From: Vicinamibacteria bacterium
GTDB lineage: Bacteria; Acidobacteriota; Vicinamibacteria; Fen-336
NCBI GenBank assembly: GCA_035251085.1
Contig: DATFEN010000147.1
Coordinates: forward strand, 1 to 42,666
Direction: 5' to 3'
Length of the DNA stretch: 42,666 bases
In this document: positions 1,093 through 28,001 of the stretch, piece after piece
Layout of the letters: each line of letters starts with the position of its first letter
How positions within the stretch are numbered: position 1 is the stretch's first letter
The notes under the pieces: model-generated
The model's database searches: none
The model's input: the letters and a program-made list of their open reading frames with translations, nothing else
What the model was told of the DNA's origin: nothing
Program-made: the position numbers and the translations under genes

Positions 1093-1497
1093 CTACATCG
1101 TCTCGGTCGTCTCGGTCTTCTTGCCTTTGCCGGCGGGTCGAATCGCGACGGCGGCCGGCGCGCCCTTGTCGTCCACGGTGTATTGAATCTTCACCTTGTC
1201 GCCGGCCTTCAGGTTCTTGAGCCGGTTCGCAGCCTTGCCCTCGGCCTTCCATGTCGCCGTCTGGTCCTTCTCGTCCTTGAAGGTGATCGTCGACTGCGCG
1301 GCGTCCACCGACACCACGGTCCCCAGGACCTGGTTCCGAGGCGCTGCGGGTTTGGCAGCGCCTGGAGATGCGGACGGCGTCGGCGAAACGGCCGCCTTCG
1401 GGGCGGCCGCAGGAGTCGGGGACGGGGACGGCTTCGGAGCCTGTGCGAGACCGCAAACGGCGAAGATGGCGGAACCGACGATGACGAGCTTTCGCAT
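1093..1497 (-). CDS. Small secreted protein: signal peptide, Pro/Ala/Ser-rich linker and a small beta-rich C-terminal domain (CusF/DUF1344-like topology, no obvious metal ligands)
   Basis: Lies in the frame of ORF 1093..1554. The internal ATG at 1497 is preceded by GGAGAGG (minus strand) and gives MRKLVIVGSAIFAVCGLAQA, followed by PKPSPSPTPAAAPK.. and then GTVVSVDAAQSTITFKDEKDQTATWKAEGKAANRLKNLKAGDKVKIQYTVDDKG. Confidence 0.7.
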   Translation of the reverse strand: MRKLVIVGSAIFAVCGLAQAPKPSPSPTPAAAPKAAVSPTPSASPGAAKPAAPRNQVLGTVVSVDAAQSTITFKDEKDQTATWKAEGKAANRLKNLKAGDKVKIQYTVDDKGAPAAVAIRPAGKGKKTETTETM

Positions 1498-1535
1498 GCC
1501 TTTCGAACCTCTCCTCACTTTCATTCTAATGCAGT

Positions 1536-1551
1536 GGCAGCGACCGGTCCT
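1536..1551 (-). promoter_or_regulatory. Weak sigma-54-type -24/-12 candidate upstream of the small secreted protein gene
   Basis: The minus strand reads AGGACCGGTCGCTGCC against the consensus TGGCACG-N4-TTGCW. The invariant GG and GC are present at the correct 11-nt register and 7 of 11 defined positions match. It sits about 40 nt upstream of the ATG at 1497 and immediately downstream of a sigma-54 activator gene. Confidence 0.3.
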
Positions 1552-2954
1552 CAAGTGCCCTCCGCCCCCTTGCGCTCGGAGATGGCTCCGGCAGGAGTCT
1601 GGATCTTCTCCAACCGATACTGCAGGGTGCGGCGCGACAGGCCCAGCAACCGCGCCGCCCGGGAGACGTTGCCCTCGGTCTTCTCGAGTGCCTTCAGGAT
1701 CAGTGTGCGCTCGACTTCGTCGAGGTCGATGCCCGAGTCGGGGATGTCCAGGGCCAGCGGTCCACGCATGGTCGTGATCCCCGCGCGCACCGCTGCAGGC
1801 AGGTCGCCGGGCACGATGACGTCCTCCTCGGCCAGGAGCATCGCCCGTTCGATCACCGACTCGAGCTGGCGCACGTTGCCAGGCCAGTCGTAGGCGGCGA
1901 GGATGTTCAAGGCGGCCTCGCTCATCTCCTTGGGGTGCCTGGGATCGGCGTACTTCCGCATGAAGTGCTCGACCAGCAGCGGGATGTCGGTGCGCCGATC
2001 CCGCAGTGGCGGCAGGACGATCGGGATGACATTGAGGCGGTAGAAGAGGTCCTCGCGGAAGCGGCCCGCGCGCACCTCGCCCTCGAGGTCGCGATTGGTG
2101 GCGGCCACGATGCGCACGTCGATCTTGACGCGCTCGGTTCCGCCGACACGCAGGATCTCGCGCTCCTGGAGCGCCCGAAGCAGCTTCACCTGCAGGTCGC
2201 GCTTCAGGTCGCCCACCTCGTCGAGGAACAGCGTCGAACCGCTCGCCTGCTCGAACAGGCCGATCTTGCGCGTCTCCGCGCCCGTGAACGCACCCCTCTC
2301 GTGACCGAACAGCTCGGCCTCGAGGATGCTCTCCGGGAGGGCGGCGATGTTGACGGCCCAGAGCGGCCGCTCGCGCCGCTCGCTCTGGTGGTGGAGGGCC
2401 CGGGCGATCAGCTCCTTGCCCGTGCCGCTCTCGCCGTAGACGAGGACCGTGGCGCTCGACGCGGCCACCTTGTGGACGATGCGGAACACGTCCTGCATCG
2501 ACCCGTGGGCCCCGACGATGTTGTCGATGCGGAAGCGGTCGCGAAGCTGCTCCTGCAGCATCCGGTTCTCGCGCAGCAGCCGGCTGCGCTCCACGGCGCG
2601 TCCCAGCACGACGAGGAGCACGTCCTTCTCGATCGGCTTGGTGAGGTAGTCCATCGCACCCTTGCGCATCGCGTCCACGGCGCTGGTGATGGTGCCGTGG
2701 GCCGTCATCAGCACCACGCTGGCCGCGGGCTGCGTCCGGGCCAGCTCGGTGAGCAGGGCGATGCCGTCCATGTCGGGCATCTTGAGGTCGGTGAGGACGG
2801 CCTCGAATGCCTGGGTGCGGGCGACGTCGAGAGCGCGCTGGCCGTTCGAGGCGGTGACGGTCTCGTAGCCCTCGGAGTCGAGGATCATCTGGAGGATGTC
2901 GCGCTGGTTCTGCTCGTCGTCGACGACGAGCACCCGGCCCCGGACCGAGCTCAC
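1551..2954 (-). CDS. Sigma-54-dependent two-component response regulator (NtrC family: receiver + AAA+ + Fis-type HTH)
   Basis: Receiver domain [17 protein letters not shown]. Walker A motif GESGTGKE. Sigma-54 contact loop GAFTGA. C-terminal [25 protein letters not shown]. The start overlaps the kinase stop (ATGA at 2951-2954). Confidence 0.93.
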
Positions 2955-4444
2955 GACGCGATGGCCTCGGCCCGAACCGCCTCGGCCACCACCGGCAGCA
3001 CGATGCGCGCCGTGGTGCCCTGGCCCTTCGCGCTCTCCAGTGCGATCGAGCCCCCGTGGTCGCCCACGATCTTGCGCGTCAGCGACAGGCCCAGGCCCAC
3101 GCCGGTCTCCTTGGTGGAGAAATACGGCTCGAAGGCCGCCTGCACCTCCTCGGGAGTCATTCCGAGACCGTTGTCCGCGACGGTCACCACGATCACGTCT
3201 CCGCCGGAGTCGCGGTCCTTGCGGCCCGTCACGCGCAGCACCCCGCCCGATGGCATGGCGTCGACGGCGTTGATCATCAGGTTGAGGAAGCAGGTCTTGA
3301 GCAGCTCCGGGTCGGCGAGCGTGTCGGGCAGCTCCTCGAGCTCGAGCTCCAGGGAGATGCTCTGATCCCTCGCCTTGTGGTCCACGAGCGAGGCGACCTC
3401 GCGCAGGATGTCTCCGATCGCGCAGACGCGGCGGTCGAGTCGCATCGGGCGGCCGAACGAGAGGAAATCGTTCACGAGGCGGTTCAGCCGGCTGATCTCA
3501 CCCTTGACGTTGCCGATGATGCGGTCGAAGTTCTCGCGCCGGGCGGTGTCGTCCGGGTGGAGCTTCTCGCGCACGTGGTCCATGGAGAGGCTGATGAAGT
3601 TGAGCGGGTTGCGGATCTCGTGCGCCACCGCGGAGGCGAGCCGCCCGATGGCGGTGGAACGCTCGGCGAAGTGGAGGCGCTCCTCTAGCAGCTGCTTCTC
3701 GCGCAGCTTGCCCACCATCTCGTTGAAGGTGCGCGATAGTGCGCCCACCTCGTCCCTGCTCCCCGCGGGCACGCTCACCTCGAGGCTGCCGGCCGCGACG
3801 GCGCGGGCAGCCATGGTGAGCTGGTCGAGGGGCCGGCTGAAGGTCCATGACAAGTAGAGTGAGAGCAGGATCCCGACCCCGAAGACAGCGAGGGTCGCGA
3901 TCAGGCGGTTCACGAGCGCCTCGTTCGATAGCGCCGAGAAGTCGTCGATGTTGCGGGTGATGAGCACGTAGCCGATGCGGCGGTCGCCCACCACGACCGG
4001 GATGGTGAGCGTCGAGGTCTTCACGCCGGGGGCCTCATCGCCGAGCACGCCGCGGATCACGTACTGCTTCGGACCCTTTCGCTTGGGGCTCGCGCGGACC
4101 AGGCGCTTGCCGACGTTCTCCGGATTGGTCGAGGCCTGGACCTCCTCGTCGGCGTCTGCGATCGAGACGTCCTTCACGCCGAGCTGGCGCAGCTTGTCCG
4201 CGTAGGCGTTGAGGACGACCTGCGCGTCGCCCTCCCCGGCGGGCTGCTCCTGGGCGATCTCGATGGCGGTGGACAGCTCCTCGGTGTACTCGCGCACCTT
4301 GGAGAGCAGCTGGCGCTCGCTGAGCAGGTGCAGCAGGAACAGCGACGAGACGGACAGCACCAGCAGCGACAGCATCGTCAGGAGCAGCTTGGTGCGGATG
4401 TTGGAGTCCCCGAGGCGACGCGCCAACGCGCTCAGCCAGCGCAT
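2951..4444 (-). CDS. Membrane sensor histidine kinase (2 TM, periplasmic sensor, HAMP, HisKA, HATPase_c)
   Basis: The real start is the internal ATG at 4444 (MRWLSALARRLGDSNIRTKLLLTMLSLLVLSV..). The 111 codons upstream in ORF 2951..4777 overlap korA and look non-coding. Motifs seen: HAMP (RPLDQLTMAARAVAAGSLEV), H-box AHEIRNPL, and the N/G boxes DNGLGM..GVGLGLS. Confidence 0.88.
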   Translation of the reverse strand: MRWLSALARRLGDSNIRTKLLLTMLSLLVLSVSSLFLLHLLSERQLLSKVREYTEELSTAIEIAQEQPAGEGDAQVVLNAYADKLRQLGVKDVSIADADEEVQASTNPENVGKRLVRASPKRKGPKQYVIRGVLGDEAPGVKTSTLTIPVVVGDRRIGYVLITRNIDDFSALSNEALVNRLIATLAVFGVGILLSLYLSWTFSRPLDQLTMAARAVAAGSLEVSVPAGSRDEVGALSRTFNEMVGKLREKQLLEERLHFAERSTAIGRLASAVAHEIRNPLNFISLSMDHVREKLHPDDTARRENFDRIIGNVKGEISRLNRLVNDFLSFGRPMRLDRRVCAIGDILREVASLVDHKARDQSISLELELEELPDTLADPELLKTCFLNLMINAVDAMPSGGVLRVTGRKDRDSGGDVIVVTVADNGLGMTPEEVQAAFEPYFSTKETGVGLGLSLTRKIVGDHGGSIALESAKGQGTTARIVLPVVAEAVRAEAIAS

Positions 4445-4467
4445 ACCGAGCAGTCTAGATCCCGCGC

Positions 4468-4508
4468 CCGGCGGGCCGCAACCGAGGGGTGCCCGCCGGC
4501 GATATACT
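4468..4508 (+). promoter_or_regulatory. Inverted repeat plus -10-like hexamer in the divergent kinase/korA intergenic region
   Basis: CCGGCGGGC (4468-4476) and GCCCGCCGG (4491-4499) form a perfect 9-bp inverted repeat with a 14-nt spacer. TATACT follows at 4503-4508. The korA Shine-Dalgarno AGGAGGA lies at 4531-4537. Confidence 0.25.
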
Positions 4509-4547
4509 GGTGGTTCACTGCGGGAGTCCCAGGAGGAATCAGGGCGT

Positions 4548-6391
4548 ATGGCCACGATGGAAGCGCCGCTGCGGCGGCGGGAGACCCTCGACGAAGCCGT
4601 CATTCGGTTCTGCGGCGACTCGGGGGACGGCATGCAGATCACCGGGAGCCAGTTCACCAACACGGCTGCGCTCTTCGGGAACGACATCTCGACGTTCCCC
4701 GACTTCCCCGCGGAGATACGCGCCCCTGCCGGGACCCTGCCGGGGGTCTCCGGCTTCCAGATCCACTTTTCCACCAAGGACGTCTATACGCCTGGCGACG
4801 CCGTGGACGTTCTGGTCGCAATGAACCCGGCTGCGCTGAGGATGAACGTGGCCGACCTGAAGACCGGCGGCATCCTCATCGTCAACGTCGACAATTTCAA
4901 GGACACGGACCTGCGCAAGGCCCAGATCGTCCAGAACCCGCTGGAGGACCACTCCCTCGACGGCTATCGGGTCTTCGGCGTCGAACTGACCAAGCTCACG
5001 CGGGCCGCCCTCAAGGAACTCGGCCTCGACGCGAAGGCGATGGACCGGTGCAAGAACTTCTTCGCGCTGGGCATGTGCTACTGGCTCTACAACCGATCGA
5101 TGGACGCCACGCATCGGTGGCTGGACGACAAGTTCAAGGACAAGCCGGTGCTGGCCGAGGCCAACAAGCTTGCCATGAAGGCCGGCTACAGCTACTGCGA
5201 GGCCACCGAGGCCTTCCAGGTCAGCTACGACATTCCGCCGGCGCGCCTCTCGCCCGGGACGTACCGCAACATCAGCGGCAACACGGCTCTGGCGCTCGGA
5301 TTCGTGACGGCATCGGCGCGCTCGGGACTGCCGTTGTTCCAGGGCAGTTATCCGATCACACCGGCCTCGGACATCCTCCACGAGCTCAGCATGTACAAGG
5401 ACTTCGGTGTGACCACGTTCCAGGCCGAGGACGAGATCGCGGCGATGACGTCGGCCATCGGCGCGGCCTATGCGGGCTCCCTGGCGATCACGACCACGTC
5501 CGGGCCAGGGATGGCGCTGAAGATGGAGGCCATCGGCCTCGCCGTCATGGTCGAGCTGCCGGTGGTGATCTGCGACATCCAGCGCGGCGGTCCGTCCACG
5601 GGCCTGCCGACGAAGACCGAGCAGGCCGACCTGCTCCAGGCCCTCTTCGGGCGCAACTCCGAGTCGCCGCTTCCCGTGCTTGCGCCGCAGACGCCCGGCG
5701 ACTGCTTCTGGATCGCTCTCGAGGCCGCACGCATCGCGACGAAGTACATGGTGCCGGTGATCGTGCTGTCCGACGGCTACCTGGCCAACGGTGCCGAGCC
5801 CTGGCGCATCCCCACCTCGGCCGAGCTGCCGGCGATGCCCGTGAGATTCCGCACCGACCCGCAGGGCTTCATGCCTTACCTGCGCGATGCCGAGACACTG
5901 GCGCGGCCCTGGGTGAAGCTGGGCACGCCGGGCCTCGAACATCGCATCGGCGGTCTCGAGAAGCAGGACGGCACGGGCAACGTCAACTACGAGGCGCTGA
6001 ACCACGAGCACATGGTGCGGTTGCGGGCGGCCAAGGTGCAGGCCGTGGCGACCGAGATCCCCGACGTCGAGGCCGCCGGGGATGCGGAGGGCGACCTGCT
6101 CCTCGTCGGCTGGGGCTCGACCTACGGCGCGATCACCGCTGCGCTCCGGACCGTCCGCGACCGCGGCCATCGCGTGGGCCACGTTCACCTGCGTCACCTG
6201 AATCCCCTCCCGCGGAACCTGGGCGAAGTGCTGAAGCGTTACCGCAAGATCGTCGTGCCCGAGATGAACCTGGGCCAGCTGCTCATGGTATTGCGAGCCA
6301 AGTTCCTCGTGGATGCGATCGGCCTCAACAAGGTCCAGGGCAAGCCGTTCAAGCAGCAGGAGATCGAGGCGAAGGTCGAGGAGGTTCTCCA

Positions 6392-6395
<4 letters not shown>
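4548..6395 (+). CDS. korA: 2-oxoglutarate/2-oxoacid:ferredoxin oxidoreductase, alpha subunit (fused alpha-gamma type)
   Basis: ATG at 4548 follows AGGAGGA. MATMEAPLRRRETLDEAVIRFCGDSGDGMQITGSQFTNTAALFGND..FPDFPAEIRAP..SYPITPASDILHEL is the typical KorA signature. The upstream part of ORF 4209..6395 is antisense to the kinase. Confidence 0.9.
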
Positions 6396-7458: not shown

Positions 7459-7681
7459 TGTCGGAGGTCGAAATTCGAGCGAAGTGCCCGAGCGAGCGAC
7501 TCGGGCCAATCCGTGAATCGGAGGTTGCTTGCATGGAGTGCACTCCGCCGAAGAGAGTTGGGGGCCTCTAGAGGCCCCGCACGGATCGAAGCCGTTTTGA
7601 AGCACGCGCCCTGAAGGCGCGCGGGGGTTTCGAAACCCCAATAGAGAAGCGGGCCCGGGACAGTGCTCCCGGGCCCTTTTT
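7459..7681 (+). ncRNA. Candidate ~220-nt structured small RNA (unknown family), bounded by the promoter above and an intrinsic terminator
   Basis: A chain of hairpins or palindromes: GCCCGAG-N7-CTCGGGC (about 7485-7505), GGAGTGCACTCC (7535-7546), GGGGCCTCTAGAGGCCCC (7561-7578), CGCGCC-CTGAA-GGCGCG (7605-7621), GGGGTTTCGAAACCCC (7624-7639), and then the terminator. There are two copies of TCGGAGGT (7461-7468, 7518-7525). I recognised no RNase P, tmRNA, SRP or 6S signature. Confidence 0.35.
7651..7681 (+). terminator. Rho-independent terminator (possibly bidirectional)
   Basis: GGGCCCGGGA-CAGTGC-TCCCGGGCCC forms a perfect 10-bp G+C stem with a 6-nt loop, followed by TTTTT(GCTTTCG). It lies 15 nt beyond the stop (7696-7698) of the convergent minus-strand gene. 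Confidence 0.7.
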
Positions 7682-7695
7682 GCTTTCGTCCGGAC

Positions 7696-9390
7696 TTATC
7701 GTTCCAACGACGGCACAGGGATTCGCAGGTCGCCCTCTTCCGTTTCCAGCAGGACATCGGTCGACTCGACGGCTCTTACGACCGCATCGGCGAGGCGATC
7801 GCCTGCCCGGTAGGAATAGAGGGTGCCGTTGGGTGCGTAGGCGAAGGCGATCCAGCCGTTCCCCGCCGTCGCCAGACCCACCGGTTGGAACTCCGAGAGC
7901 GCCAGGTCCGAAGGTCGCAGCTGGAGCCGTGGATCCGGCGGATCGCCGGCGATTGGCTCGAGGCTCTCTCCGCCGCCGGGTCGCTCGACGATCCGGCGCC
8001 CATCCTCGAGACGCTCGGCGAGGCCGAGGGCCGCGAGCATGGTGGTACGAAGCGCTCCGGCAGGAGTGTTCTTGGCCCAGACGCTCAGCCGGCCAAGGGT
8101 CCCCGCGGGACCCAGCGACGCGAGGCTTGGGTCGATGTCGGCCATGACCGCCAGCAGATCGCGGACCGAAGCGCGTTTGAGCTCGAAGCTCACGAGCGGT
8201 CCGGCGGGAGGCGGTTCGTCTGCAGCCGCGGTTCCTTTCCTCGCCGGCGCCCTCTTCTCCTCCTTCGGGGCTCGCCCGGATGCGACGACGCGCACGGGCC
8301 CGTCGTCGGAGAAGCGCAGATTGGCAGCCTTGGCCAGTGCCTGGAGCGCCTCGTCGAGCGTCACGCGTGACAGCTCGATGCTGGTGCGCCCGAACGCAGC
8401 GGCGTCGACCACGAAGCCTTGGCCGGTGAGGGCCGTCAGCACCCGGAAGACGTCGGGCAGGTCGACGTCGCGCAGTCGGACGGACAGGGGCCCCTTGCCG
8501 GGGGTCTTCCCGCCCGGCCCCTGGACCACCGGGCCGCGCAGCGTATCGCGGTCCACCGTGCACGACGCGTCAGGCTCCTCGAAGGGGTCCTCGCCCGGGA
8601 TGGGCAGCTCCGCCTCGGGTCCCGCAACGGGGCTCGATCCCTTCACTTCGAACCGCAGGCACGCGCCCTGACGCGCGACAAGGAACTGCGTCACGCGGAA
8701 GAACCCGCTCTCGAAGCGCGACTCCAGGGCACGCACCGGCCCTTCGCCGACCGTCAGCCCCTTGACCGAGAACCCCTCGGCAAGGACAGCCTGCGTGACG
8801 ATGGCCGGTCGCTCGCGCACGGCCGCGCCCAGCTCGGAGAGGAACACCCGGGGGTTGCGGCGGCTTCGCCGCAGCCCGGCGATGGCCTCGGACTTTGCGA
8901 GGGCGAGTGCCTGGTCGGCGATGAAGGCATCGGCCTGGGCACGCGGAACTCCGCTCACCCGGGCCCGCGTGCCGTCGGGGACATGGGCCAGGGGCGCCCG
9001 CAGCGGTCGAAACGGGCAGAGCAGGACCGCCGTCAGGCGGATGGAGTCGCCTGGTGCCGCCGTCAGGGTCAGGGTCTCGACGTCGACGAGACGATGGGAG
9101 AGCGCCACCAGACCGAAGAAGCGATCGACCTGCGCATAACTTCCCACGGCGGCGAGCTCCACCGCCACGTGGCCCCGGGCACCGTCTTCCACCGGCGGAC
9201 GGGCCAGCGACTCGACCGCGACAAGGCGCGCTTGCTCCGCCAGGTTCCTCACCAGCGCAGCATCGGCGACCGTGATCGGGCCGTCGGGAAGGATCCGACG
9301 AAGGGCTTCGAGGCGCCGGTCGAGGAGCAGCCGCTCGTCGGGGAACGGCCGCTCCGGCACGCTGACCAGGAGCAGCAGGGGCCAGAGCAT
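7696..9390 (-). CDS. Membrane-anchored periplasmic protein fusing two PilN/PilO-like modules, two secretin-N0/STN-like modules and a PilP-like module
   Basis: Continuous 564-aa ORF with high GC3. Short N-terminal hydrophobic anchor MLWPLLLLVSV. PilO-like module ..AVELAAVGSYAQVDRFFGLVALSHRLVDVETLTLTAAPGDSIRLTAVL. PilN-like module RRNPRVFLSELGAAVRERPAIVTQAVLAEGFSVKGLTVGEGPVRALESRFESGFFRVTQFLV..RFEVKG. First STN-like module LSVRLRDVDLPDVFRVLTALTGQGFVVD..VTLDEALQALAKAANLRF, second VSFELKRASVRDLLAVMADI... PilP-like module LSEFQPVGLATAGNGWIAFAYAPNGTLYSYRAGDRLADAVVRAVESTDVLLETEEG. Confidence 0.8.
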   Translation of the reverse strand: MLWPLLLLVSVPERPFPDERLLLDRRLEALRRILPDGPITVADAALVRNLAEQARLVAVESLARPPVEDGARGHVAVELAAVGSYAQVDRFFGLVALSHRLVDVETLTLTAAPGDSIRLTAVLLCPFRPLRAPLAHVPDGTRARVSGVPRAQADAFIADQALALAKSEAIAGLRRSRRNPRVFLSELGAAVRERPAIVTQAVLAEGFSVKGLTVGEGPVRALESRFESGFFRVTQFLVARQGACLRFEVKGSSPVAGPEAELPIPGEDPFEEPDASCTVDRDTLRGPVVQGPGGKTPGKGPLSVRLRDVDLPDVFRVLTALTGQGFVVDAAAFGRTSIELSRVTLDEALQALAKAANLRFSDDGPVRVVASGRAPKEEKRAPARKGTAAADEPPPAGPLVSFELKRASVRDLLAVMADIDPSLASLGPAGTLGRLSVWAKNTPAGALRTTMLAALGLAERLEDGRRIVERPGGGESLEPIAGDPPDPRLQLRPSDLALSEFQPVGLATAGNGWIAFAYAPNGTLYSYRAGDRLADAVVRAVESTDVLLETEEGDLRIPVPSLER

Positions 9391-9443: not shown

Positions 9444-9542
9444 GTGAAATTGAAATCCACTTTCATATCGCTTGACTCCCGACGCCGGGCGCTGCTATCC
9501 TCCCGCCGCATGAATCTGAAACTGAATTTCAATTTCATATTG
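9444..9542. repeat. AT-rich duplicated/inverted TGAAAT-type repeat framing the divergent promoter and the porin start codon
   Basis: TGAAATTGAAAT (9445-9456) is the perfect reverse complement of ATTTCAATTTCA (9526-9537). In addition, the 27-mers at 9444-9470 (GTGAAATTGAAATCCACTTTCATATCG) and 9516-9542 (CTGAAACTGAATTTCAATTTCATATTG) form an imperfect direct repeat (about 20/27 identical) spaced exactly 72 bp apart. The local AT content is far above the rest of the window. Confidence 0.6.
9472..9501 (+). promoter_or_regulatory. Candidate sigma-70 promoter for the porin operon (TTGACT-N18-TATCCT)
   Basis: -35 TTGACT at 9472-9477 and -10 TATCCT at 9496-9501. The -10 ends 8 nt before the ATG at 9510, and there is no Shine-Dalgarno, so the mRNA may be leaderless or nearly leaderless. 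Confidence 0.35.
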
Positions 9543-10853
9543 GCATGCACCCTCGCCGGCCTCTCCGCGGTGTCGGCCTTTGCCGAGGACAAGACCTCCC
9601 TGGACGAGCTGCGCAAGCAGGTGGCCGAGCTGAAGGCCGAGGTGGCCCGCCTGCAGAGCGCCGGCACCACGGGCGAACGCGTCACGGAGCTGGAACGCCG
9701 GATCGACGTGCTGGCTCAGGAACTGGAGAGAGCTCGAACCGGCGGGGCGACCGAAGTCGAGGCAGAGAAGGGCAGCTTCGGCCTGGGGCCCGCAGCTTCG
9801 AAGGTGTATCGCAAAGACAAGGGCGTCTCCCTCGGCGGCTACGGCGAAGCCACCTACCAGGGTGGCGATCGGGATGAGCTGGACGCGCTGCGGAGCGTCT
9901 TCTACATCGGGAACAAGTTCGACGATCGCATCCTGCTGAACTCGGAGATCGAGTTCGAGCACGCGACGACCGGCGAGGGCGACGAGGAGAAAGGAGAGGT
10001 CTCGGTCGAGTTCGCCTACCTCGACTTCAAACCCTGGAAGGAGGTTGGCTTGCGCGCCGGGCAGGTCCTGATTCCGGTGGGGTTCTTGAACGAGCTGCAC
10101 GAGCCCCCGATCTTCAGTGGCGTGCGGCGGACCGAGACCGAGCGGTTGATCCTGCCCAGCACCTGGCGAGATGTCGGCCTCGGCGGATTCGGCGCCCATG
10201 GCACGCTCGACTGGCGGGCCTACGTTGTGGCGGGTCTCGATAGCGCTGGGTTCGAGGGCGAGGCCGGGATACGGGAAGGGCGGCAGGGCGGGTCGCAGAG
10301 CCGTGCCCGGGACGTGGCCCTCACGGGGCGCCTCGACTTCACGGGCGTACCGGGCCTGCTGGCGGGCGCCTCGTTCTTCACGGGCAACTCCGGCCAGGGT
10401 GCCGTCGTGGATGGGACGACTCTCGATGGGCGCGTGACGGTGTTCGACCTGCACGTTCAATACGAGCGTCGGGGCCTCCAGCTGCGCGGCCTCTACGCGC
10501 GAACCTCGATCGGCGACGCGGCGCTCATCAATGCGAACAACGGCCTCACGGGCGATCAGAGCGTGGGTGAGCGCCAGTACGGCTTCTATCTTCAGGGCGC
10601 CTATGACGTCCTGAATCACCGGCACGGGAGCTGGGCGCTGGTGCCGTTCGTGCGCTACGAGAAGCTCAACACGCAGGATCGCGTGCCCGACGGCTTCTCG
10701 GCGAGCCCGGAGAACGAGCGCCGCATCTTCACGACGGGCCTGGGCGTCAAGCCGCTCGTCAACGTTGTGCTGAAGGCCGATTACCAGTGGGAGGAGAACG
10801 AGGCCAACGTCAATGGCAACCAGCTCAACCTCGGCATCGGCTACCTGTTCTGA
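9510..10853 (+). CDS. Outer-membrane porin (phosphate-selective porin O/P-like beta-barrel with N-terminal coiled coil)
   Basis: MNLKLNFNFILACTLAGLSAVSAFA signal peptide. Coiled coil LDELRKQVAELKAEVARLQ..ELERRIDVLAQELERAR. Then alternating beta-strand pattern, ending ..NQLNLGIGYLF with a terminal aromatic residue. An alternative in-frame GTG at 9444 would add 22 aa. Confidence 0.8.
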   Translation: MNLKLNFNFILACTLAGLSAVSAFAEDKTSLDELRKQVAELKAEVARLQSAGTTGERVTELERRIDVLAQELERARTGGATEVEAEKGSFGLGPAASKVYRKDKGVSLGGYGEATYQGGDRDELDALRSVFYIGNKFDDRILLNSEIEFEHATTGEGDEEKGEVSVEFAYLDFKPWKEVGLRAGQVLIPVGFLNELHEPPIFSGVRRTETERLILPSTWRDVGLGGFGAHGTLDWRAYVVAGLDSAGFEGEAGIREGRQGGSQSRARDVALTGRLDFTGVPGLLAGASFFTGNSGQGAVVDGTTLDGRVTVFDLHVQYERRGLQLRGLYARTSIGDAALINANNGLTGDQSVGERQYGFYLQGAYDVLNHRHGSWALVPFVRYEKLNTQDRVPDGFSASPENERRIFTTGLGVKPLVNVVLKADYQWEENEANVNGNQLNLGIGYLF

Positions 10854-10859
10854 AGCCGC

Positions 10860-11462
10860 ATGCGAGATCGGACGCGATGCTTGAATCTGTGCGATCACGC
10901 CGATAGCCTTCCCTGGGTGACGCCGAGATCCAGGTCCATCCGCGGATTGGCGCTCTTGGCTTCGCTGCATGCGCCGGCGACGTGGGCCGAGGTCCTCATG
11001 ACCGAGAAGGCGGCCATGGAGCGCGCCTTTCCGGGCTCCGCGCCCGAGCGCCTGACGCTGTACCTGACGAGCCATGAAGTCGCGGCGGTCGAGCGCACCG
11101 CACGGTCGAAGCTGCCGTCGGCGATCGTCACCGCCTTCGTTGCGCGCATGGATGGCGCGGTCACGGGCCGCGCCGTCCTCGATACTCACACGGTTCGAAC
11201 CATGCCCGAGACCGTGCTGACTGTTGTCGAGCCCGACGGCCGATTGCGGATGGCCCTCGTGCTCCAGTTCGCGGAGCCGCCCGACTACCTACCCCGCGAG
11301 GGCTGGTTGCGCACGCTCGAGGGCCGGCCGCTCGACGACGAGCTATGGCCGGGACGCGGGGTCCGCCGCGTCACCGGCGCGACGCTGACGGTGCAGGCGC
11401 TCACCGAGGCCGTGCGTCGGTCGCTGGCGATCGACGAGCTGGTCCTGAAGGGGAAGCAGTGA
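10860..11462 (+). CDS. Periplasmic FMN-binding-domain protein (NosR/RnfG/NqrC-type FMN_bind with flavinylation motif)
   Basis: C-terminal ..GRGVRRVTGATLTVQALTEAVRRSL matches the [ST]-G-A-T-x-[ST] covalent-FMN acceptor motif. The preceding ..AFPGSAPERLTLYLTSHEVAAVERTA..VLTVVEPDGRLRMALVLQFAEPPDY resembles the NosR N-terminal domain. An alternative GTG start at 10917 gives a cleaner signal peptide (MTPRSRSIRGLALLASLHAPATWA). Confidence 0.8.
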   Translation: MRDRTRCLNLCDHADSLPWVTPRSRSIRGLALLASLHAPATWAEVLMTEKAAMERAFPGSAPERLTLYLTSHEVAAVERTARSKLPSAIVTAFVARMDGAVTGRAVLDTHTVRTMPETVLTVVEPDGRLRMALVLQFAEPPDYLPREGWLRTLEGRPLDDELWPGRGVRRVTGATLTVQALTEAVRRSLAIDELVLKGKQ

Positions 11463-12019
11463 AGTACATGCAGGATGGTGGGTTCCAGAGCCACCCGTTG
11501 ATGCGCGCGACGATCGGACTCACCCTCGTACTGCTGCTGGGCTTCTGGGTCACGAACTTCGCGTTGTACTTCTCGCGCATGGGTCTCACCGCGAGCTCCG
11601 TGGTCGCGTACTACAACGGGTCCGAGGAGGACTTCCGGGCGGCCCGCTCGGCGGCCTCGATGCTGGAGACGACCCACGCTCACTTACCCATGATGGGCAT
11701 GGTGCTCCTGTTCCTGACGCATCTGGCCCTCTTCGCCCCCATCCCGCGAGCCGCGAAGATCGGCTTTGTCGCCACCGCCTTCGTCTCGGCGATGCTGGAT
11801 GAGGGCGCGGGTTGGCTGGTGCGCTTCGCCAGCCCCGCCTTCGCTCCGCTCAAGATCGTGGGCTTCGTGGGCCTGCAGGCCGCGATCGGCTTCCTGCTGC
11901 TCGTGCTCGCGCTGTTCCTGCTCGGCGCCGCGCGCCGACAGGCGGCGCTTCGCGAGTCCGAGGACCCCGCCGCGGTCGAACCCCTCGCCGAGGCGCGGGC
12001 GGCCCGCGCGCGCGACTGA
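11459..12019 (+). CDS. Four-TM inner-membrane protein with clustered histidines (unknown family)
   Basis: GTG at 11459 overlaps the upstream stop (GTGA); an alternative ATG lies at 11468. TM helices: ATIGLTLVLLLGFWVTNFALYF, LPMMGMVLLFLTHLALFAPI, IGFVATAFVSAMLDEGAGWLV, IVGFVGLQAAIGFLLLVLALFLLGA. Histidines occur in QSHP, THAHLP and LTHL. Confidence 0.7.
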   Translation: MKYMQDGGFQSHPLMRATIGLTLVLLLGFWVTNFALYFSRMGLTASSVVAYYNGSEEDFRAARSAASMLETTHAHLPMMGMVLLFLTHLALFAPIPRAAKIGFVATAFVSAMLDEGAGWLVRFASPAFAPLKIVGFVGLQAAIGFLLLVLALFLLGAARRQAALRESEDPAAVEPLAEARAARARD

Positions 12020-12081
12020 CGCGGTACGGGGCCGTCCTCGGGGTTGGAGCGGCACTGCTTCTCGTCGCTCTGAATGTCTGC

Positions 12082-13176
12082 GTGGTCTCGTCGGCCCTGG
12101 GCCTGGTCCATCGGCCACGCCAGGTGCGCGAGCTGGACCATTTCCATTACATCGCGATGGCCGAGGCCCTTCCCGGTCGGGCCGAGGACCCGCGCGCCGC
12201 CGAGCGGCCATTCTGCTACCGGATCATGGTGCCAGCCCTCGTCCACCAGATCGTGGCCGTGTCGGGCCTGGGCCAGAACGCCGTCTTCTGGGGCACGTCG
12301 CAGCTCGCCTTGGTGGCGTTCTTGTTCACGCTGTTCGCTCTCTTGCGTGGACTCGGCTTCGGCATCGAGACAGCGCTCCTCGGGATCGTCCTTGCGGCAT
12401 TGACCCCCGGGGCCGTGCGCTGGTACGCGTACCAGTACTGGATGCCGGACCCGCTGTGCCTCTGGCTCGTGACGCTCGCGCTGTTGCTGGCCCGCGGCGA
12501 GCGCTGGGCGCTGCTGAGCCTCGTCGCGTTCGCCGCAGCGCTCACGCGCGAGAGCTGGGTGCTCATCCCGGCCTTCGCGACGTTGTCATGGATGCGCCGC
12601 CGCGGTGCTCGAAGCCTCGTGCGGGCACTGCTCGTGTTCGCCCCTGCGGCGGCTGCGATGCTGGCCGTGCGCCTGAGCATCGTGCCCGCCTCGGGTCCGA
12701 CGCTCCTCGAGGCAGCGCGCGAGATGTTGGCCTTCCGCGCCCGGCATCTGTTCGACAACCAGCTCTACTTTGCGACCCTCGGCAGCTTCGGCGTGCTGGT
12801 GCCGCTGCTCGCCCTGCGGGCGAAGCGAGCGGCGGGCGCGGCGCGTGCTCGCCCCGAGGACGCGGCACTGGTGCTCATGGCCTATGCCTCGCTGGCGTTC
12901 GCGAACAACACCGACCGGCTCCTCGTCTACGCGCTGCCGGCGCTCCTCCCGCCGGCACTCCGAGCGATCGAGGCCTTGGCTGAGCGGGTCGGCCCCGCGG
13001 TCGCGTTCGCGCTCGCTCTGTTGGGCCAGGCCTGGTTCTACGCCGTCACGCCTGGCTGGGGCGTTTCAGGCCTGAGCGTGTACCAGCCGGTTCTTTGGAG
13101 CGTCGTTGTGATGTGTGGGGTGGTCCTGGGCGCGGGGCTGACGGTGCTGCGGCTGAAACGTCCCTACTCGTCGTAG
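12082..13176 (+). CDS. Polytopic membrane protein, GT-C-fold (ArnT/PMT-like) glycosyltransferase-like; 5' end uncertain
   Basis: Roughly 9-10 hydrophobic helices, with an ..ELDHFHYIAMAEAL.. loop after the first helix. The first canonical in-frame start after the upstream gene is GTG at 12082, but an obvious TM helix (YGAVLGVGAALLLVALNVCVVSSALGLV) is encoded at 12025-12108 in the same open frame. CTG at 12016 overlaps the upstream TGA (CTGA), so the true start may be about 12016. Confidence 0.6.
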   Translation: MVSSALGLVHRPRQVRELDHFHYIAMAEALPGRAEDPRAAERPFCYRIMVPALVHQIVAVSGLGQNAVFWGTSQLALVAFLFTLFALLRGLGFGIETALLGIVLAALTPGAVRWYAYQYWMPDPLCLWLVTLALLLARGERWALLSLVAFAAALTRESWVLIPAFATLSWMRRRGARSLVRALLVFAPAAAAMLAVRLSIVPASGPTLLEAAREMLAFRARHLFDNQLYFATLGSFGVLVPLLALRAKRAAGAARARPEDAALVLMAYASLAFANNTDRLLVYALPALLPPALRAIEALAERVGPAVAFALALLGQAWFYAVTPGWGVSGLSVYQPVLWSVVVMCGVVLGAGLTVLRLKRPYSS

Positions 13177-13718
13177 AAGTCGTCCCAGTCCTCCCAGTTT
13201 CCGCCTTTGGGCCGACGCCTCGTGTTCGGCTTCGGTTTGGGAGCTCCCGGCTTGCCCTCGGGGACTTTCTCCTTGAACCCCTTCGCGCCGCGGCCCCGAC
13301 CCCGCCGGTCCTGCTGTTCAGGCGGTGGAAACGCCACCTCGTCGCCGCGGACGAACGGTCGCCCCCGACGAGGGAAATCCGCCCGAAACCCCCCGCGCGG
13401 GGCGTCGGGACGGAACGGGCGGGCCCCGCCGGGGCCGCTGCCGGGTCCGCCGGCTCCGGGAGGACGCGGAGGGCGGTTGTCCGCCTCGTTGACCCGAAGC
13501 GGGCGACCCTTCATGTCCTTCCCGTTCAAGAGTTCGATCGAGCGCAGCGCCGCCTCGTCCGTCTCGAACTCCACGAACGCGAAGCCGCGAGGCCGGCCAG
13601 TCTCGCGGTCGGTCGGCACCTTGGCGTCGAGCACTTTGCCCGCCGCCCCGAAGACCGCGAGTAGCTCCTCGCGGGTCACGTCATAGCTGAGGTTTCCGAC
13701 GAAGACCTTGTTCGAAAT
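13164..13718 (-). CDS. RRM (RNP-1/RNP-2) RNA-binding protein with Arg/Gly/Pro-rich tail; apparent ATT start codon
   Basis: RNP-2 KVFVGNLSY and RNP-1 RPRGFAFVEF. AAGGAG lies 10 nt upstream of ATT at 13718. There is no ATG, GTG or TTG in frame between that Shine-Dalgarno and RNP-2. GC3 drops upstream of 13718. The track ORF (to 13919) adds 67 implausible residues. The C-terminus is RGRGRGAKG..KPKPNTRRRPKGGNWEDWDDFYDE. Confidence 0.8.
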   Translation of the reverse strand: MSNKVFVGNLSYDVTREELLAVFGAAGKVLDAKVPTDRETGRPRGFAFVEFETDEAALRSIELLNGKDMKGRPLRVNEADNRPPRPPGAGGPGSGPGGARPFRPDAPRGGFRADFPRRGRPFVRGDEVAFPPPEQQDRRGRGRGAKGFKEKVPEGKPGAPKPKPNTRRRPKGGNWEDWDDFYDE

Positions 13719-13925: not shown

Positions 13926-16796
13926 CTAGAACTCGAAGCGGATCCCCAGCTGTCCGACGCGCTGCTCGCCACGCTGGAAGTCGCCAGCGTACTCGGTGGG
14001 CTCACCGAAGTTGCTGGCGCTTTGGTTGGCCACGAAGCCGGCCGGGTTGTCGTCGTTGAACACGTTGAACAGCTCCGCGATCAGCTCCAGCCGGGAGCGG
14101 CCGCCGAGCCTGAACTTCTTCGCCACGCGCAGGTCGAACTGGCTGAAGCTCGCGCCGCGGGCCGAGTTGAACGAGCTGACGCCGGCGGGCAGGTCGTTCG
14201 TGGTCGTCCCGTCGAGGTTCGAGTCGACGCCCGTGATCACGTTGTACGGCGTCTCCGACTTGTAGCGGAAGATCGGCGAGACGATGAAGTCGGCGCCCGG
14301 GCTCCAGCTTCCACTGATGGTGAAGCGATGCCGCGCATCGCTCCGCGTCGGCGCCTCCTGCTCGTCCTTGAAGGGATCGAACATGTCGAGGACGTTGTAC
14401 TCGCCGAACTCGTCCGTCGCGCGGAGGCTGGCACTGGAGGTGGCCTCGGACAGCGTGTACCACGCCAGAAGCTGTAGCTTGCCGTCCCACCGCTTCTTCA
14501 GGCCGACCGTCACGCCTTTGTAGTGGGCGACGCCATCCGACGTGTCGATGCGGAAGTTGGCGTTTCCGGTTGTGGGCAGGATGCCCGAGAGGCGCCGCGG
14601 CCCGCCGTTGATGCGCAGGTTGATGTTGGGGCGTGTCCCCAGCTCGTGTCCTGAGGAGTAGACGCCGTCCAGCTCGATCGCGTAGCCGCCACCGAGCTCT
14701 CTCGAGAAGCCGAGGTTGAACTGGTCGGTGTAGGGCTGCTTGATGCGCGGCGAGGCGGCGTGGCTGGGCAGCGGCGCCGTCGCGTTGACGAGCTCGTTCG
14801 CCGGCAGCGGCTGGCCCACCTGGAAGAACGACCCGTCGGCGTTCCTGATGCCCGACCCATCGTTGTTCAAGTAGATCTGGCCGAAGGACGACTGCGCTCC
14901 GACGACCGCGAACAGGATGTTGGCGTTGGTGTAGGCGAAGTCGTAGTAGCGCCCGTAGCCGCCGCGGACGAGGCTCTTGCCGTTGCCGCCGAGGTCATAG
15001 GTGAAGCCCAGGCGCGGCGCGAAGTTGTTCTTGTCCTCCTCCGACGACTTGCCGAAGTCCTCGAAGCCGGGGCACGGACAGGGCAGACCCGAGGACTGGA
15101 ACACGCCAGCCTGCGCGGCGGCCTGCAGTTCTGCGAAGATGATGTTGTTGTTCTGGTCGAAGGCGAAGCCCGTGGTGAGGTCGTATCGGAGACCGAGGTC
15201 CAGCATCAGCTTGTCGTTCACGCGCCAGGTGTCCTGGAGGTAGAACGCATACTGTTTGTTCGGGATCTTGGCGAGGCTGCCGCCGCTCGCGCCGCCGATC
15301 GAACCGTTGAACGAGATCGTGTGGATCGGGGAGTTCCGGTCGTCTCCCAGGTGCTGGTAATAGGGCGACTGGCCGGTCGAGAACGTGATGTCGAGCACCG
15401 GCTCGTAGATGAAGCTCGCCCCGACCTTCAGGTCGTGGCGCCCCTTCGTCCAGGAGAAGTCGTCCCGGAACTGGTACTTGTGCTGCTCGGTCGTCTGGGG
15501 CGTGTTGACGCTCTGGCCCACGAAGACACCGTTGGGGAAGATCTCCGACGGCAGCGTCGAGTTCTCCGCGATGTGGTTCAGGAAGTACGTGTACTGGAAC
15601 ACGAACTCGTTCAGCTTGCCGCCGCCCAGCGACGTGTTGAGGTTGAGGTTGGCGGAGTGGAACGTGTTCTCGTTCCGGCCCCAGCTTTCGGGCGGCGAGT
15701 TCGGGCTCGCGCCGTAGATCTGGCTGTTGTCGTTGTAGCCGTAACGAACCGAGAGGTAGTTGTTGGCGTTGACCTGGTGGGTGAGCCTCGCCACCACGAG
15801 GTTCTCGCGGTACGGCGTGTCGTAGACCCCGTCCTTGTCCGGGAACAGGCCCAGAGTGGTCACGGTCTGAGTGGTGTCCTGGGCCGTCCGCTCGAACGCG
15901 GCGAAGAAGTGGGTCTTGTCCTTCACGATGGGGCCGCCGATGCTCGCTCCGAACTGGTGGCGCTTGTAGTCGCCCTTGTCCTGCTCGTTGAGCTCTTCGG
16001 TGGTGGTCTTGGAGTTCAGGCTCTTGTCGCGGAAGAACTCGAAGACGGCGCCGCTGAACTCGTTGGTTCCGCTCTTGGTAACCACCTTGAGCGTCCCGCC
16101 GTTCGAGCGGCCGGTGTCGGCGCGGAAGCGCTGCGTCTCGAAGTTGAACTCGCCGATCGAGTCGAGCGGGAAGAGCTGGACGAGCCCGCCGACGGTGTCG
16201 TCGTTGTTGTCGCCGCCGTCGATCAGGTAGTTGATGTTGCGGCCGCCACCCCCGTTCACCTGGGGCGCAAACTGCGTGGACTTGGTCGGGTCGGTGTGGA
16301 AGCCGAGGCTGACGCCGGGAACGAGCGCGGCCAGATTGCCGAACTGGCGCCCGTTCAACGGCAGGTTCTCGATCTGATCGCCTGTGATGACCTCACCCAT
16401 TCCCGATTGCGTGGAGTCGATGAGCGGCGACTCAGCGACGACCGTAAGCTCCTCGGTCTGACCCGCCACGGACAGGCGAACGTCCGTCGTGGTCGTGGCT
16501 CCGACGTTGACCACGGCCCGCTTCGCCTGGGCGGCGAAGCCGGAGAGCTCGATCTTCAGGTCATAGGTGCCGACCGGGAGGCCTGCCAGACGAAAGGCCC
16601 CGTTGCTGTCCGAGACGGCTGAGCGCGTGAAACCGGTCGACGCGCTCTGGGCGGTTACGTTGGCGCCCGGCAGAGCGAGGCCCTGTTCGTCGACCACCTT
16701 GCCCTCGACGGCGCCCGTAGTGCCTTGGGCGAAGACGGGACCGCTGGCCAGCAGGGCCAGCAGCCCCAGTGCCCAGGAACGGCGGAATGTCGTCAT
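13926..16796 (-). CDS. TonB-dependent outer-membrane receptor with N-terminal carboxypeptidase-regulatory-like domain
   Basis: ATG at 16796 follows GGAGGA. MTTFRRSWALGLLALLASGPVFAQG signal peptide. GAVEGKVVDEQGLALPGANVTAQSASTGFTRSAVSDSNGAFRLAGLPVGTYDLKIELSGF (CarboxypepD_reg). Plug and barrel motifs are present, and the protein ends ..LGIRFEF. Confidence 0.9.
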   Translation of the reverse strand: MTTFRRSWALGLLALLASGPVFAQGTTGAVEGKVVDEQGLALPGANVTAQSASTGFTRSAVSDSNGAFRLAGLPVGTYDLKIELSGFAAQAKRAVVNVGATTTTDVRLSVAGQTEELTVVAESPLIDSTQSGMGEVITGDQIENLPLNGRQFGNLAALVPGVSLGFHTDPTKSTQFAPQVNGGGGRNINYLIDGGDNNDDTVGGLVQLFPLDSIGEFNFETQRFRADTGRSNGGTLKVVTKSGTNEFSGAVFEFFRDKSLNSKTTTEELNEQDKGDYKRHQFGASIGGPIVKDKTHFFAAFERTAQDTTQTVTTLGLFPDKDGVYDTPYRENLVVARLTHQVNANNYLSVRYGYNDNSQIYGASPNSPPESWGRNENTFHSANLNLNTSLGGGKLNEFVFQYTYFLNHIAENSTLPSEIFPNGVFVGQSVNTPQTTEQHKYQFRDDFSWTKGRHDLKVGASFIYEPVLDITFSTGQSPYYQHLGDDRNSPIHTISFNGSIGGASGGSLAKIPNKQYAFYLQDTWRVNDKLMLDLGLRYDLTTGFAFDQNNNIIFAELQAAAQAGVFQSSGLPCPCPGFEDFGKSSEEDKNNFAPRLGFTYDLGGNGKSLVRGGYGRYYDFAYTNANILFAVVGAQSSFGQIYLNNDGSGIRNADGSFFQVGQPLPANELVNATAPLPSHAASPRIKQPYTDQFNLGFSRELGGGYAIELDGVYSSGHELGTRPNINLRINGGPRRLSGILPTTGNANFRIDTSDGVAHYKGVTVGLKKRWDGKLQLLAWYTLSEATSSASLRATDEFGEYNVLDMFDPFKDEQEAPTRSDARHRFTISGSWSPGADFIVSPIFRYKSETPYNVITGVDSNLDGTTTNDLPAGVSSFNSARGASFSQFDLRVAKKFRLGGRSRLELIAELFNVFNDDNPAGFVANQSASNFGEPTEYAGDFQRGEQRVGQLGIRFEF

Positions 16797-17018
16797 CCGA
16801 TGTCCTCCATTCTGGTGCGGCATTGAGAGTGCGGTCGAGACACTCGGCCCCCAGACGTCGAGGGGGACGAGGGGCAACCGCTGGGTTTTCAAAGTCTCTT
16901 GTCGCATCGAGAAGGCAAGATCAACGCCAGCTGAGCCGATGCGCAAATCCTTGGATATGAAAGAACTTGTGACAACTGTAAGGCGAAAACTTCAAAAGTT
17001 TGGAGTCTTGCCCGAAAG

Positions 17019-26977: not shown

Positions 26978-27991
26978 ATGGGGTGGAGTTCGACTCCAAC
27001 GCGTAGCGCGCGCGTCGACGACGCTCGCCGCACGAACGAACGCCTGGGGCGCATGGCGCGCGAGGTGCGCGCCGGCCTTCTGACGCGGCCGCTGCCGACG
27101 CTGCCGTGCAAGTACTTCTACGACGAGCGCGGCTCGGCGCTCTTCGACGCGATCACGCTTCTTCCGGAGTACTACCCGACCCGGACCGAGGAGGCGAACC
27201 TCGCGTCGATCGCGGACGATGTGGTCGACCGCGTGCGCCCGCGCGAACTGGCGGAGCTGGGGTCGGGGGTCGGCCGCAAGGTGCGCATCCTCCTGGACGC
27301 CATGCGCCGCCGCGGCCTGCTCGAGAGATGCGTGCTCTTCGACATCAGCCACGAGGTGCTGACCGCGTCGGTCGAGGCCCTCGCCGCCGACTACCCCGGC
27401 GTGGACGTTCGCGGCGTCGTGGGGGACTTTCTCGAGGACCTCGAGGCTCTCGGCCCGGGAGGCGGGCGTCTCGGTTTGTTCCTGGCGGGCACCATCGGCA
27501 ACCTGCACCCCGATGAAGTGCCCGGCTTTCTGGGTGCGGTGGCCGGCCGGCTCGAGCGTGGCGACGGCTTCCTCGTGGGAGTGGATCTCGTCAAGGACCC
27601 GGCCCTCCTCAATGCCGCCTACAACGACGCGGCCGGCGTGACCGCCGAGTTCAACCGCAACATCCTGCGCGTGATCAACAGGACCTTCGGGGCCGACTTC
27701 GATCCCGAGGCCTTCGAGCACGTCGCGTTCTACGATCCGGACAACGCCTGGATCGAGATGCGGCTCCGGGCGCGGCGCAGGATGCGAGTCCACGTGCCGC
27801 ACGCAGGAGTGGCGTTGCGCCTCGAGCCCGGGGATGAGATCCGCACGGAGCTTTCGTGCAAGTACAGTCACGAGTCCTTCTCTTCGCGGCTGGCCGGCAC
27901 GGGCCTCGTCCTCGAACGCTGGTTCACCGATCCGCGGAAGCTCTTCGCATCCGTCCTCCTCCGCAAGCGGGGCGCGCCGGAGGTGGCGTGA
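26978..27991 (+). CDS. egtD: L-histidine N-alpha-methyltransferase (hercynine synthase)
   Basis: REVRAGLLTRPLPTLPCKYFYDERGSALFDAITLLPEYYPTRTE..ELGSGVGRK..LFLAGTIGNL..AAGVTAEFNRNILRVINR..IRTELSCKY are canonical EgtD motifs. Confidence 0.9.
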   Translation: MGWSSTPTRSARVDDARRTNERLGRMAREVRAGLLTRPLPTLPCKYFYDERGSALFDAITLLPEYYPTRTEEANLASIADDVVDRVRPRELAELGSGVGRKVRILLDAMRRRGLLERCVLFDISHEVLTASVEALAADYPGVDVRGVVGDFLEDLEALGPGGGRLGLFLAGTIGNLHPDEVPGFLGAVAGRLERGDGFLVGVDLVKDPALLNAAYNDAAGVTAEFNRNILRVINRTFGADFDPEAFEHVAFYDPDNAWIEMRLRARRRMRVHVPHAGVALRLEPGDEIRTELSCKYSHESFSSRLAGTGLVLERWFTDPRKLFASVLLRKRGAPEVA

Positions 27992-28001
27992 ACAGGGCGT
28001 G

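Follow-up and report, generated by a model that had tools for sequence, protein, structure and literature searches.

Can the periplasmic alignment modules of type IV pili (T4P) and type II secretion systems (T2SS) exist as one polypeptide that stands apart from either machine? This question is raised by a gene at positions 7696..9390 (minus strand) of a 42,666-nucleotide stretch of DNA, here called the window, which is contig DATFEN010000147.1 of assembly GCA_035251085.1 and originates from a soil Acidobacterium of the class Vicinamibacteria (about 69% G+C). The PilNOP/GspCLM bridge and the N0 gate of the secretin are usually studied as separate proteins, and their contacts control assembly and gating of the pilus or the secretion pore. 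Within the canonical machines, PilN and PilO form a pair through ferredoxin-like cores and coiled coils, and the HR domain of PilP or GspC docks on the N0 domain of the secretin (3jc8, 3oss, 6hcg; PMC3169554). The gene in the window encodes a single chain in which relatives of most of these modules follow one another, and it belongs to a real, conserved, uncharacterised, and previously undescribed protein family with a new domain architecture of T4P/T2SS alignment modules.

Domain Architecture of the Protein

The gene is complete and codes for 564 amino acids, as indicated by the list of open reading frames (ORFs), its homologous clusters, its AlphaFold model, and G+C contents of 0.78, 0.52, and 0.83 at the three codon positions, which are typical of coding sequence. 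An initial annotation of the window had delimited the same ORF and had proposed PilO/PilN-type, secretin-N0-type, and PilP-type modules within one chain; the coordinates were reproduced exactly and all peptide stretches that it quoted lie inside the ORF. The order of modules is signal peptide, D1, D2, a linker with a conserved cysteine, D3, D4, and D5.

Taken by itself, the protein gives matches that are coherent yet not convincing. In Pfam, STN (E=0.0044, residues 335-361) and PilO (E=0.11, residues 63-115) are both sub-threshold, in NCBIfam the N-terminal region of PilQ matches residues 301-390 (E=1e-6, far below the family cut-off), and phmmer against sequences of the PDB finds the N0 domain of PilQ (4ar0, E=0.017). 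No Pfam or NCBIfam family spans the protein. A profile of 44 divergent family members was searched against the PDB sequences, and its positions were mapped back to the protein of the window. In addition, a full-length AlphaFold2 model was obtained from a 39-sequence alignment, with a mean predicted local distance difference test (pLDDT) of 85.2 and a predicted template-modeling score (pTM) of 0.72; residues 1-16 form its leader and residues 256-297 the linker between D2 and D3. Foldseek comparison of the whole model with the PDB retrieves PilO (2rjz/5uvr/3jc8_O), the N0 domain of PilQ (4ar0), and the N0 domain of LspD/GspD (7pmp), each with a probability of 1.00, and lower down the periplasmic domains of PulM and XcpY (0.80-0.99). 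The profile and structure searches that the initial annotation had called for thus back its central proposal, by sequence profile for PilO and N0 and by Foldseek for PilP/GspC-HR.

D1 (residues 17-130; 9001..9342, minus strand as all modules) is a PilO-like module, identified by family profile, Pfam, and Foldseek, with a coiled-coil helix and a ferredoxin-like core; in the model, two helices are followed by strand-strand-helix-strand-strand. The family profile matches PilO from Myxococcus xanthus (3jc8_O, E=1.8e-5) and Pseudomonas aeruginosa (2rjz, E=1.1e-3), and nine of the 44 divergent members match Pfam PilO at E up to 0.05 (best 9.9e-6). The protein of the window scores 13 bits with PilO (PF04350), for which the gathering score is 22 bits; D1 is a remote homolog, and the protein as a whole does not belong to that family. 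The first helix of D1, RPFxEERLLLDRRLExLRRILPD (residues 14-36; 9283..9351), which is modelled with pLDDT above 90, is the best-conserved segment of the family, with a mean majority fraction of 0.93 compared to 0.71-0.80 in the five modules, and invariant columns run within it from R20 to P35.

D2 (residues 141-255; 8626..8968) has the same topology as D1 in the model, helix-helix-strand-strand-helix-strand-strand, which is that of PilN, PilO, GspL, and GspM, and predicted secondary structure places a ferredoxin-like core after a long helix in both modules. Foldseek matches to PilO (2rjz/5uvr/3jc8_O) have template-modeling (TM) scores to the target of 0.57-0.70, the hits not being apportioned between D1 and D2. 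A D2 profile finds no match among PDB sequences at E up to 10 and none at all in Pfam, neither PilN, PilO, nor the L and M families of the T2SS, and PilN (PF05137) is matched by one full-length member of the 44 (E=0.029). Of the two PilO/PilN-type modules initially proposed, D1 is thus borne out by profile and Foldseek, and D2 by its topology and not by its sequence. An origin of D1 and D2 by tandem duplication of a PilO-like module was also considered and is unsupported, as hhalign shows no similarity between them. D2 holds the invariant residues G215 and C244, the latter in its last strand. In the alignment of relatives, the following linker (residues 256-297; 8500..8625) contains the conserved motif DPF...C..DRD and the invariant C277. 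Both cysteines are invariant even among relatives that are about 25% identical, which is consistent with a disulfide in the oxidising periplasm, and C244 and C277 may form such a bond.

D3 (residues 298-375; 8266..8499) is the first of two secretin-type N0 domains, which are also known as secretin/TonB short N-terminal (STN) domains. It comprises the sole Pfam STN stretch of the protein (335-361), is covered by the NCBIfam match to the N-terminus of PilQ, and matches by family profile the N0 domain of GspD (4e9j/5mp2, best E=2.3e-6). D4 (residues 396-472; 7975..8205) matches PilQ (6ve2, E=4.3e-15; N0 in 4ar0, E=6.3e-11). In the model, both are built as strand-helix-strand-strand-helix-strand-strand, and hhalign detects homology between them with a probability of 97.7% (E=1.4e-12); to judge from this comparison, D3 and D4 are a tandem duplication. 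The linker that joins them has low model confidence and a column conservation of 0.26. For STN/N0 (PF07660, PF21305) the single protein reaches 17.3 bits, the cut-off being 28.4, and recognition is achieved at the level of the family: STN is found in 29 and GspD_N0 in 27 of the 44 divergent members (best 7.9e-13), figures that cover D3 and D4 jointly. Family profile, Foldseek, and hhalign therefore agree with the two STN modules of the initial annotation.

D5 (residues 495-560; 7711..7908) is a β-sandwich like that of PilP and the HR domain of GspC. Modelled alone it is all-β with a pLDDT of 90.4, and its 12 best PDB matches in Foldseek are all PilP or HR domains of GspC/PulC/LspC, with probabilities of 0.99-1.00. 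Among them are the PilP structures 2lc4, 3jc8_P, 2ivw, and 2y4x/y and the HR structures 3oss_C (TM score 0.75, root-mean-square deviation 1.8 A), 6hcg_e, and 7oio. A D5 profile retrieves no PilP or GspC chain from the PDB sequences, and no member of the 44 matches PilP (PF04351) in Pfam, so that the PilP-like β-sandwich initially proposed is borne out by the model and Foldseek and not by sequence.

The chain terminates with the PilP-like domain, and neither the protein nor any of the 44 members has a match to the secretin pore (PF00263, Secretin) or to Secretin_N in Pfam or NCBIfam; it is not a secretin. Because the tests of gathering scores, membrane topology, lipobox, and pore domain all failed, the protein is no member of PilO, PilN, PilP, or the secretins as these are defined. 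Its modules are homologs or fold-mates of the periplasmic modules of those proteins.

Extent and Conservation of the Family

The gene had initially been labelled an orphan, which is misleading in view of the size and conservation of the family to which it belongs. Among 5.8 billion proteins searched, 476 clusters match at E up to 1e-3. Of these, the top 120 are nearly all full-length (551-607 aa, besides one fragment of 427 aa) and 53-97% identical, and those members among them for which a source is named all come from metagenome-assembled genomes (MAGs) of Vicinamibacteria. In a scan of one genome per GTDB species the gene was found in 46 species genomes, of which 45 are labelled Vicinamibacteria or Acidobacteriota and one (L031) is labelled uncultured proteobacterium.

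When 1.84 billion cluster representatives were searched exhaustively with the profile, 1509 matched at E up to 1e-3, 129 of them with E no higher than 1e-30. Among the best 150 representatives (at 50% identity), 62 match the profile over a span that starts ahead of position 70 and ends past position 520, and these full-span relatives include proteins that are just 20-27% identical to the protein of the window. As the architecture is retained at such distance, the arrangement of five modules is old and conserved and not a recent accidental fusion. A search with a profile of distant members returned only its own first sequence and one unrelated PilQ of gammaproteobacterial appearance. Members are annotated as hypothetical proteins and once (P0067, NCBI pipeline) as "type 4a pilus biogenesis protein PilO." Literature searches found no fused PilO/PilP/N0 protein and nothing relevant on pilus genes in Vicinamibacteria.

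Variants of the family comprise proteins of about 300 aa with only the N0-N0-β-sandwich half and giant proteins of 1.5-2 thousand residues. One of the latter (P0166, 1959 aa, locus L057 2394-8273) is a membrane-tethered version of the family: residues 418-509 are an Rce1-like (CPBP) intramembrane protease domain, an additional PilO-like region (1187-1300) exceeds the cut-off of Pfam PilO with 26.7 bits, and the five modules are present in full at 1419-1955. A half-size relative of 302 aa (P0239; N0-N0-PilP-like only, with its own signal-peptide-like start) is encoded in a cluster at 1933-4433 (plus strand) of locus L058. It is preceded by two same-strand genes (167 and 346 aa), each of which starts with a stretch resembling a transmembrane segment plus a long helix, and a pair of genes for a histidine kinase and a response regulator is situated upstream of the relative. 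This cluster may represent a version of the system that is split up and anchored in the membrane. The idea that the two upstream genes supply the missing PilO-like half found no support from Pfam, the family hidden Markov model, or hhalign against D1 and D2.

N-Terminus and Cellular Location

The N-terminus had initially been taken for a short membrane anchor, a view that is not upheld. The hydrophobic stretch at residues 1-13 (MLWPLLLLVSVPE; 9352..9390) comprises only 11-12 residues, with a longest uncharged run of 12. Inspection of the N-termini of homologs reveals features of Sec signal peptides, i.e., an n-region with K or R, an h-region of 10-15 residues, and an AxA-type end, and no 20-residue transmembrane segment was seen in them, at variance with the bitopic topology of PilO and PilN. 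By the same inspection, no lipobox cysteine follows the signal-peptide-like segment in the protein of the window or in its Vicinamibacteria homologs. Rather than a transmembrane anchor, the N-terminus is probably a Sec signal peptide that can be cleaved, and because of this signal-peptide-like start, the lack of a lipobox, and the invariant C244 and C277, the protein is most likely soluble in the periplasm.

Pilus and Secretion Genes Around the Family

Pfam scans of the window covered those ORFs that pass a filter for coding G+C, and among them no pil or gsp gene was found, in agreement with the initial observation that pilM, the secretin pore, pilin, ATPase, and platform genes are lacking. 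What these scans did find is exonuclease VII, a sigma-54 two-component pair, korAB, a TonB-type outer-membrane protein, two sulfatase-TPR proteins, DUF3014, genes for an EgtD/EgtB-like methyltransferase and an FGE-sulfatase protein, peptidases, a molybdopterin oxidoreductase, and others. The separation of the gene from pilus and secretion genes extends beyond the window to the flanks of related loci. No pil or gsp gene is linked to the homologs in about 60 loci with flanks of up to 10 kb on each side, none appears in the Pfam-marked gene lists of the 15 loci obtained by exact protein look-up, and tblastn with one PilQ query, a search of limited sensitivity, detected no secretin pore in the flanks of 59 loci, which total 1.0 Mb.

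Comparison with Known Systems

The module types of the protein are shared with PilN-PilO-PilP and PilQ N0 of the type 4a pilus (P. aeruginosa, M. xanthus; 3jc8, 2rjz, 2lc4, 6ve2, 4ar0), and their order along the chain runs from modules of the inner-membrane side to those of the outer-membrane side. In contrast to the type 4a pilus, all modules reside in one polypeptide outside any pilMNOPQ operon, there is neither a transmembrane helix (PilN and PilO are bitopic) nor a lipobox (PilP is a lipoprotein), and D2 and D5 lack sequence-level similarity to PilN and PilP. Compared with PilQ, the protein has two N0 domains and no N1, secretin pore, or AMIN domains. From the T2SS, with GspC HR-GspD N0 and GspL/GspM (3oss, 6hcg, 4e9j, 8a9x, 6ghu), the HR domain of GspC is the best superposition for D5 (the 3oss_C match given above), the N0 domain of GspD is matched by the sequence profile of D3, and the periplasmic domains of GspL and GspM are among the fold matches; unlike the T2SS components, the protein is fused and lacks the PDZ or coiled-coil C-terminus of GspC, transmembrane segments, and nearby gsp genes.

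Two further systems deserve comparison. The GspB/OutB/ExeB scaffolds (4wfw; PMC9239104) are accessory periplasmic scaffolds with an HR-type domain that binds the secretin N0, and they are a weaker fold match of D5 (rank 13). OutB, unlike the protein described here, is a peptidoglycan-binding protein anchored in the inner membrane, and it lacks PilO and N0 modules. Proteins of the Amuc_1100 type from Akkermansia (6kny, 6lad) have a PilO-like fold that has been studied beyond pilus assembly and match the model with probabilities of 0.99-1.00. Amuc_1100, however, is a single module from a different lineage and is encoded in a pilus-like cluster.

Possible Functions

We propose that the protein might be a secreted, soluble scaffold of the periplasm that reuses contacts of the PilO-PilN and PilP-N0 types. 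D1 and D2 would form one pair, and D3 or D4 would be the docking site of D5; these contacts could be made within the chain or between neighbouring chains, giving a compact unit or else a head-to-tail oligomer or ring. Such a unit would work independently of any adjacent pilus operon, which makes the suggestion of the initial annotation, a scaffold re-used for something other than a pilus, a plausible one, and the near-invariant helix at residues 14-36 would be the best candidate for a site that binds an external partner. We favour this reading because the pTM of 0.72 over 564 residues, above what would be expected for five independently tumbling domains, suggests a defined inter-domain packing. 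Nevertheless, a self-associating scaffold, with its contacts, location, and role, is put forward tentatively, at somewhat less than an even chance. Several points weigh against it. The proposed contacts between D1 and D2 and between D5 and N0 are hinted at by this single pTM value, the PilN/PilO-type label of D2 is a fold-level assignment from topology, the PilP/HR identity of D5 comes from structure comparison, and the signal peptide was called by inspection. The Foldseek E-values are modest (1e-3 to 1e-1), the hit lists being coherent, and no co-occurring partner gene that would point to a function was found in the related loci examined. Also, the protein might instead serve in a pilus or secretion machine that is encoded at a distance from it.

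In that case it would be a fused, streamlined replacement of PilN/PilO/PilP (or GspL/M/C) beneath a secretin, with T4P or T2SS genes at other sites and with its N0 domains stacking on those of the secretin or substituting for them. Four of the five modules match best or solely the alignment or secretin proteins of T4P and T2SS, pil genes are often dispersed in genomes, and the name given to P0067 points in the same direction. However, without a transmembrane anchor the protein could not link to the cytoplasmic PilM or GspE in the way PilN or GspL do, it never adjoins pilM, pilQ, or any other pil or gsp gene in the roughly 60 loci, and N0 domains of its own would be redundant if its role were to bind that of the secretin. 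Membership in such a machine is the main rival reading, and we regard it as less likely than the scaffold. A role as periplasmic signalling adaptor, in which STN/N0 relays a signal from the outer membrane to kinases or regulators as in TonB-dependent transducers and FecR-type anti-sigma systems, appears quite improbable. The STN domain (PF07660) is common to secretins and TonB-dependent transducers and one member has a weak FecR_C match (E=0.045), but the best N0 matches are secretins (PilQ 4e-15, GspD 2e-6), no TonB-dependent receptor is among the PDB matches, and D5 is of the PilP/GspC-HR type that binds secretin N0. Likewise, Ser/Thr kinases or response regulators lie directly adjacent to homologs in some loci (L001, L056, L053, L058) and the window encodes a TonB-type outer-membrane protein (13926-16946), but these neighbours are not conserved: by tblastn the kinase of L001 occurs in 7 of 52 loci, mostly in non-adjacent position, and the outer-membrane protein has a homolog in 1 of 52. 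Finally, the weak similarity of the single sequence to canonical families and the lack of linked machine genes might suggest a decaying duplicate or functionless relic of pilus genes. Such an origin is very improbable and effectively excluded by the pattern of conservation, as the family is conserved over its full length in hundreds of clusters and 46 species genomes, some residues are invariant, every module shows 71-80% column conservation, synteny is conserved, and G+C at the third codon position is of the coding type.

A bolder version of the scaffold reading, which we consider unlikely, is that a gene set pilN-pilO-(N0-pilP) was freed from its machines and became a self-sufficient periplasmic ring or bridge. 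It would then be a housekeeping structure of the envelope in Vicinamibacteria, such as a spacer that spans the periplasm or a platform on which a non-secretin outer-membrane protein docks. If this were true, it would be the first T4P/T2SS alignment complex acting as an independent single-chain machine. A conserved soluble chain that contains both sides of each contact would be a natural "minimal" model of those interfaces, and, if it acts without a pilus, it would mean that this periplasmic scaffold took on a different role in the envelope of an abundant class of soil bacteria that has been little studied. The "PilO" label on such proteins could be miscounted as evidence for type IV pili in MAGs of Acidobacteria.

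Genomic Neighbourhood and Other Features of the Window

Synteny was counted by tblastn over 52 related loci. The conserved order consists of a gene for an RRM-type RNA-binding protein, a variable insert, the gene of the family, and then the convergent korBA genes for a 2-oxoacid:ferredoxin oxidoreductase. The RRM gene is located upstream on the same strand in 43 of the 52 loci, and korBA are convergent in about 35. In the window, the small RRM_1-type gene lies at ~13476-13631 (minus strand) and fell outside the coding filter of the Pfam scans; its homologs have a Gly/Arg-rich tail. The divergent porin operon (9444-13176), whose pairing with the gene had been singled out initially as worth checking, is found beside a homolog in only about 10 of the 52 loci; elsewhere its place is taken by other inserts, among them a solute-binding protein with two lipoprotein-like genes (9 loci) and a DUF4198 gene (4 loci). 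The neighbourhood looks like ordinary synteny of the lineage and not like a functional operon. Two same-strand genes upstream of the homologs in L004 and L001 were considered as candidates for pilM/pilN and dismissed, as they are lipoprotein-like, have no Pfam match, and are present in 9 of the 52 loci.

The insert of the window is a four-gene cassette on the plus strand between the RRM gene and the gene of the family and behaves like a variable island. It encodes a putative β-barrel protein of 469 aa with an N-terminal coiled coil and DUF1192 as sole match, a 200-aa protein, a 224-aa membrane protein, the L003 homolog of which is marked Aq_1264_TM, and a polytopic membrane protein of 454 aa. 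On the other side, a GC-rich hairpin of 10 bp, nine of them G-C, was found by pattern scan at 7651..7676; it is terminator-like by consensus. Its position between the convergent gene and korB, 20 nt past the stop codon of the former, is consistent with the end of a transcription unit. Two distant loci have a gene for a Ser/Thr protein kinase directly next to the homolog, in L001 (11676-13442) at 4 nt downstream and in L056 (11691-13742) in convergent orientation; the periplasmic sensor part of the kinase has PD40 repeats in one case and dCache_3-HAMP in the other.

Several other genes of the window were noted. The TonB-type outer-membrane protein at 13926-16946 is a barrel of 1006 aa with CarboxypepD_reg and similarity to TonB-dependent receptors, and it is adjoined by two tandem paralogous sulfatase-TPR fusion proteins of 692 and 571 aa (17019-20809, minus strand). 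At 26978-29297 (plus strand), a histidine-specific methyltransferase using S-adenosylmethionine (Methyltransf_33, E=1e-97) lies beside a gene with DinB_2 and FGE-sulfatase domains, and the two are the EgtD/EgtB pair typical of ergothioneine biosynthesis. The longest ORFs of a histidine kinase (2951-4777, minus strand) and korA (4209-6395, plus strand) overlap by about 570 nt on opposite strands, and the true starts must therefore be internal, that of korA probably being near 4551 (MATMEAPL...). Between xseA and the sigma-54 regulator, a gene at 1093-1554 (minus strand) codes for a CusF-like periplasmic protein of 153 aa.

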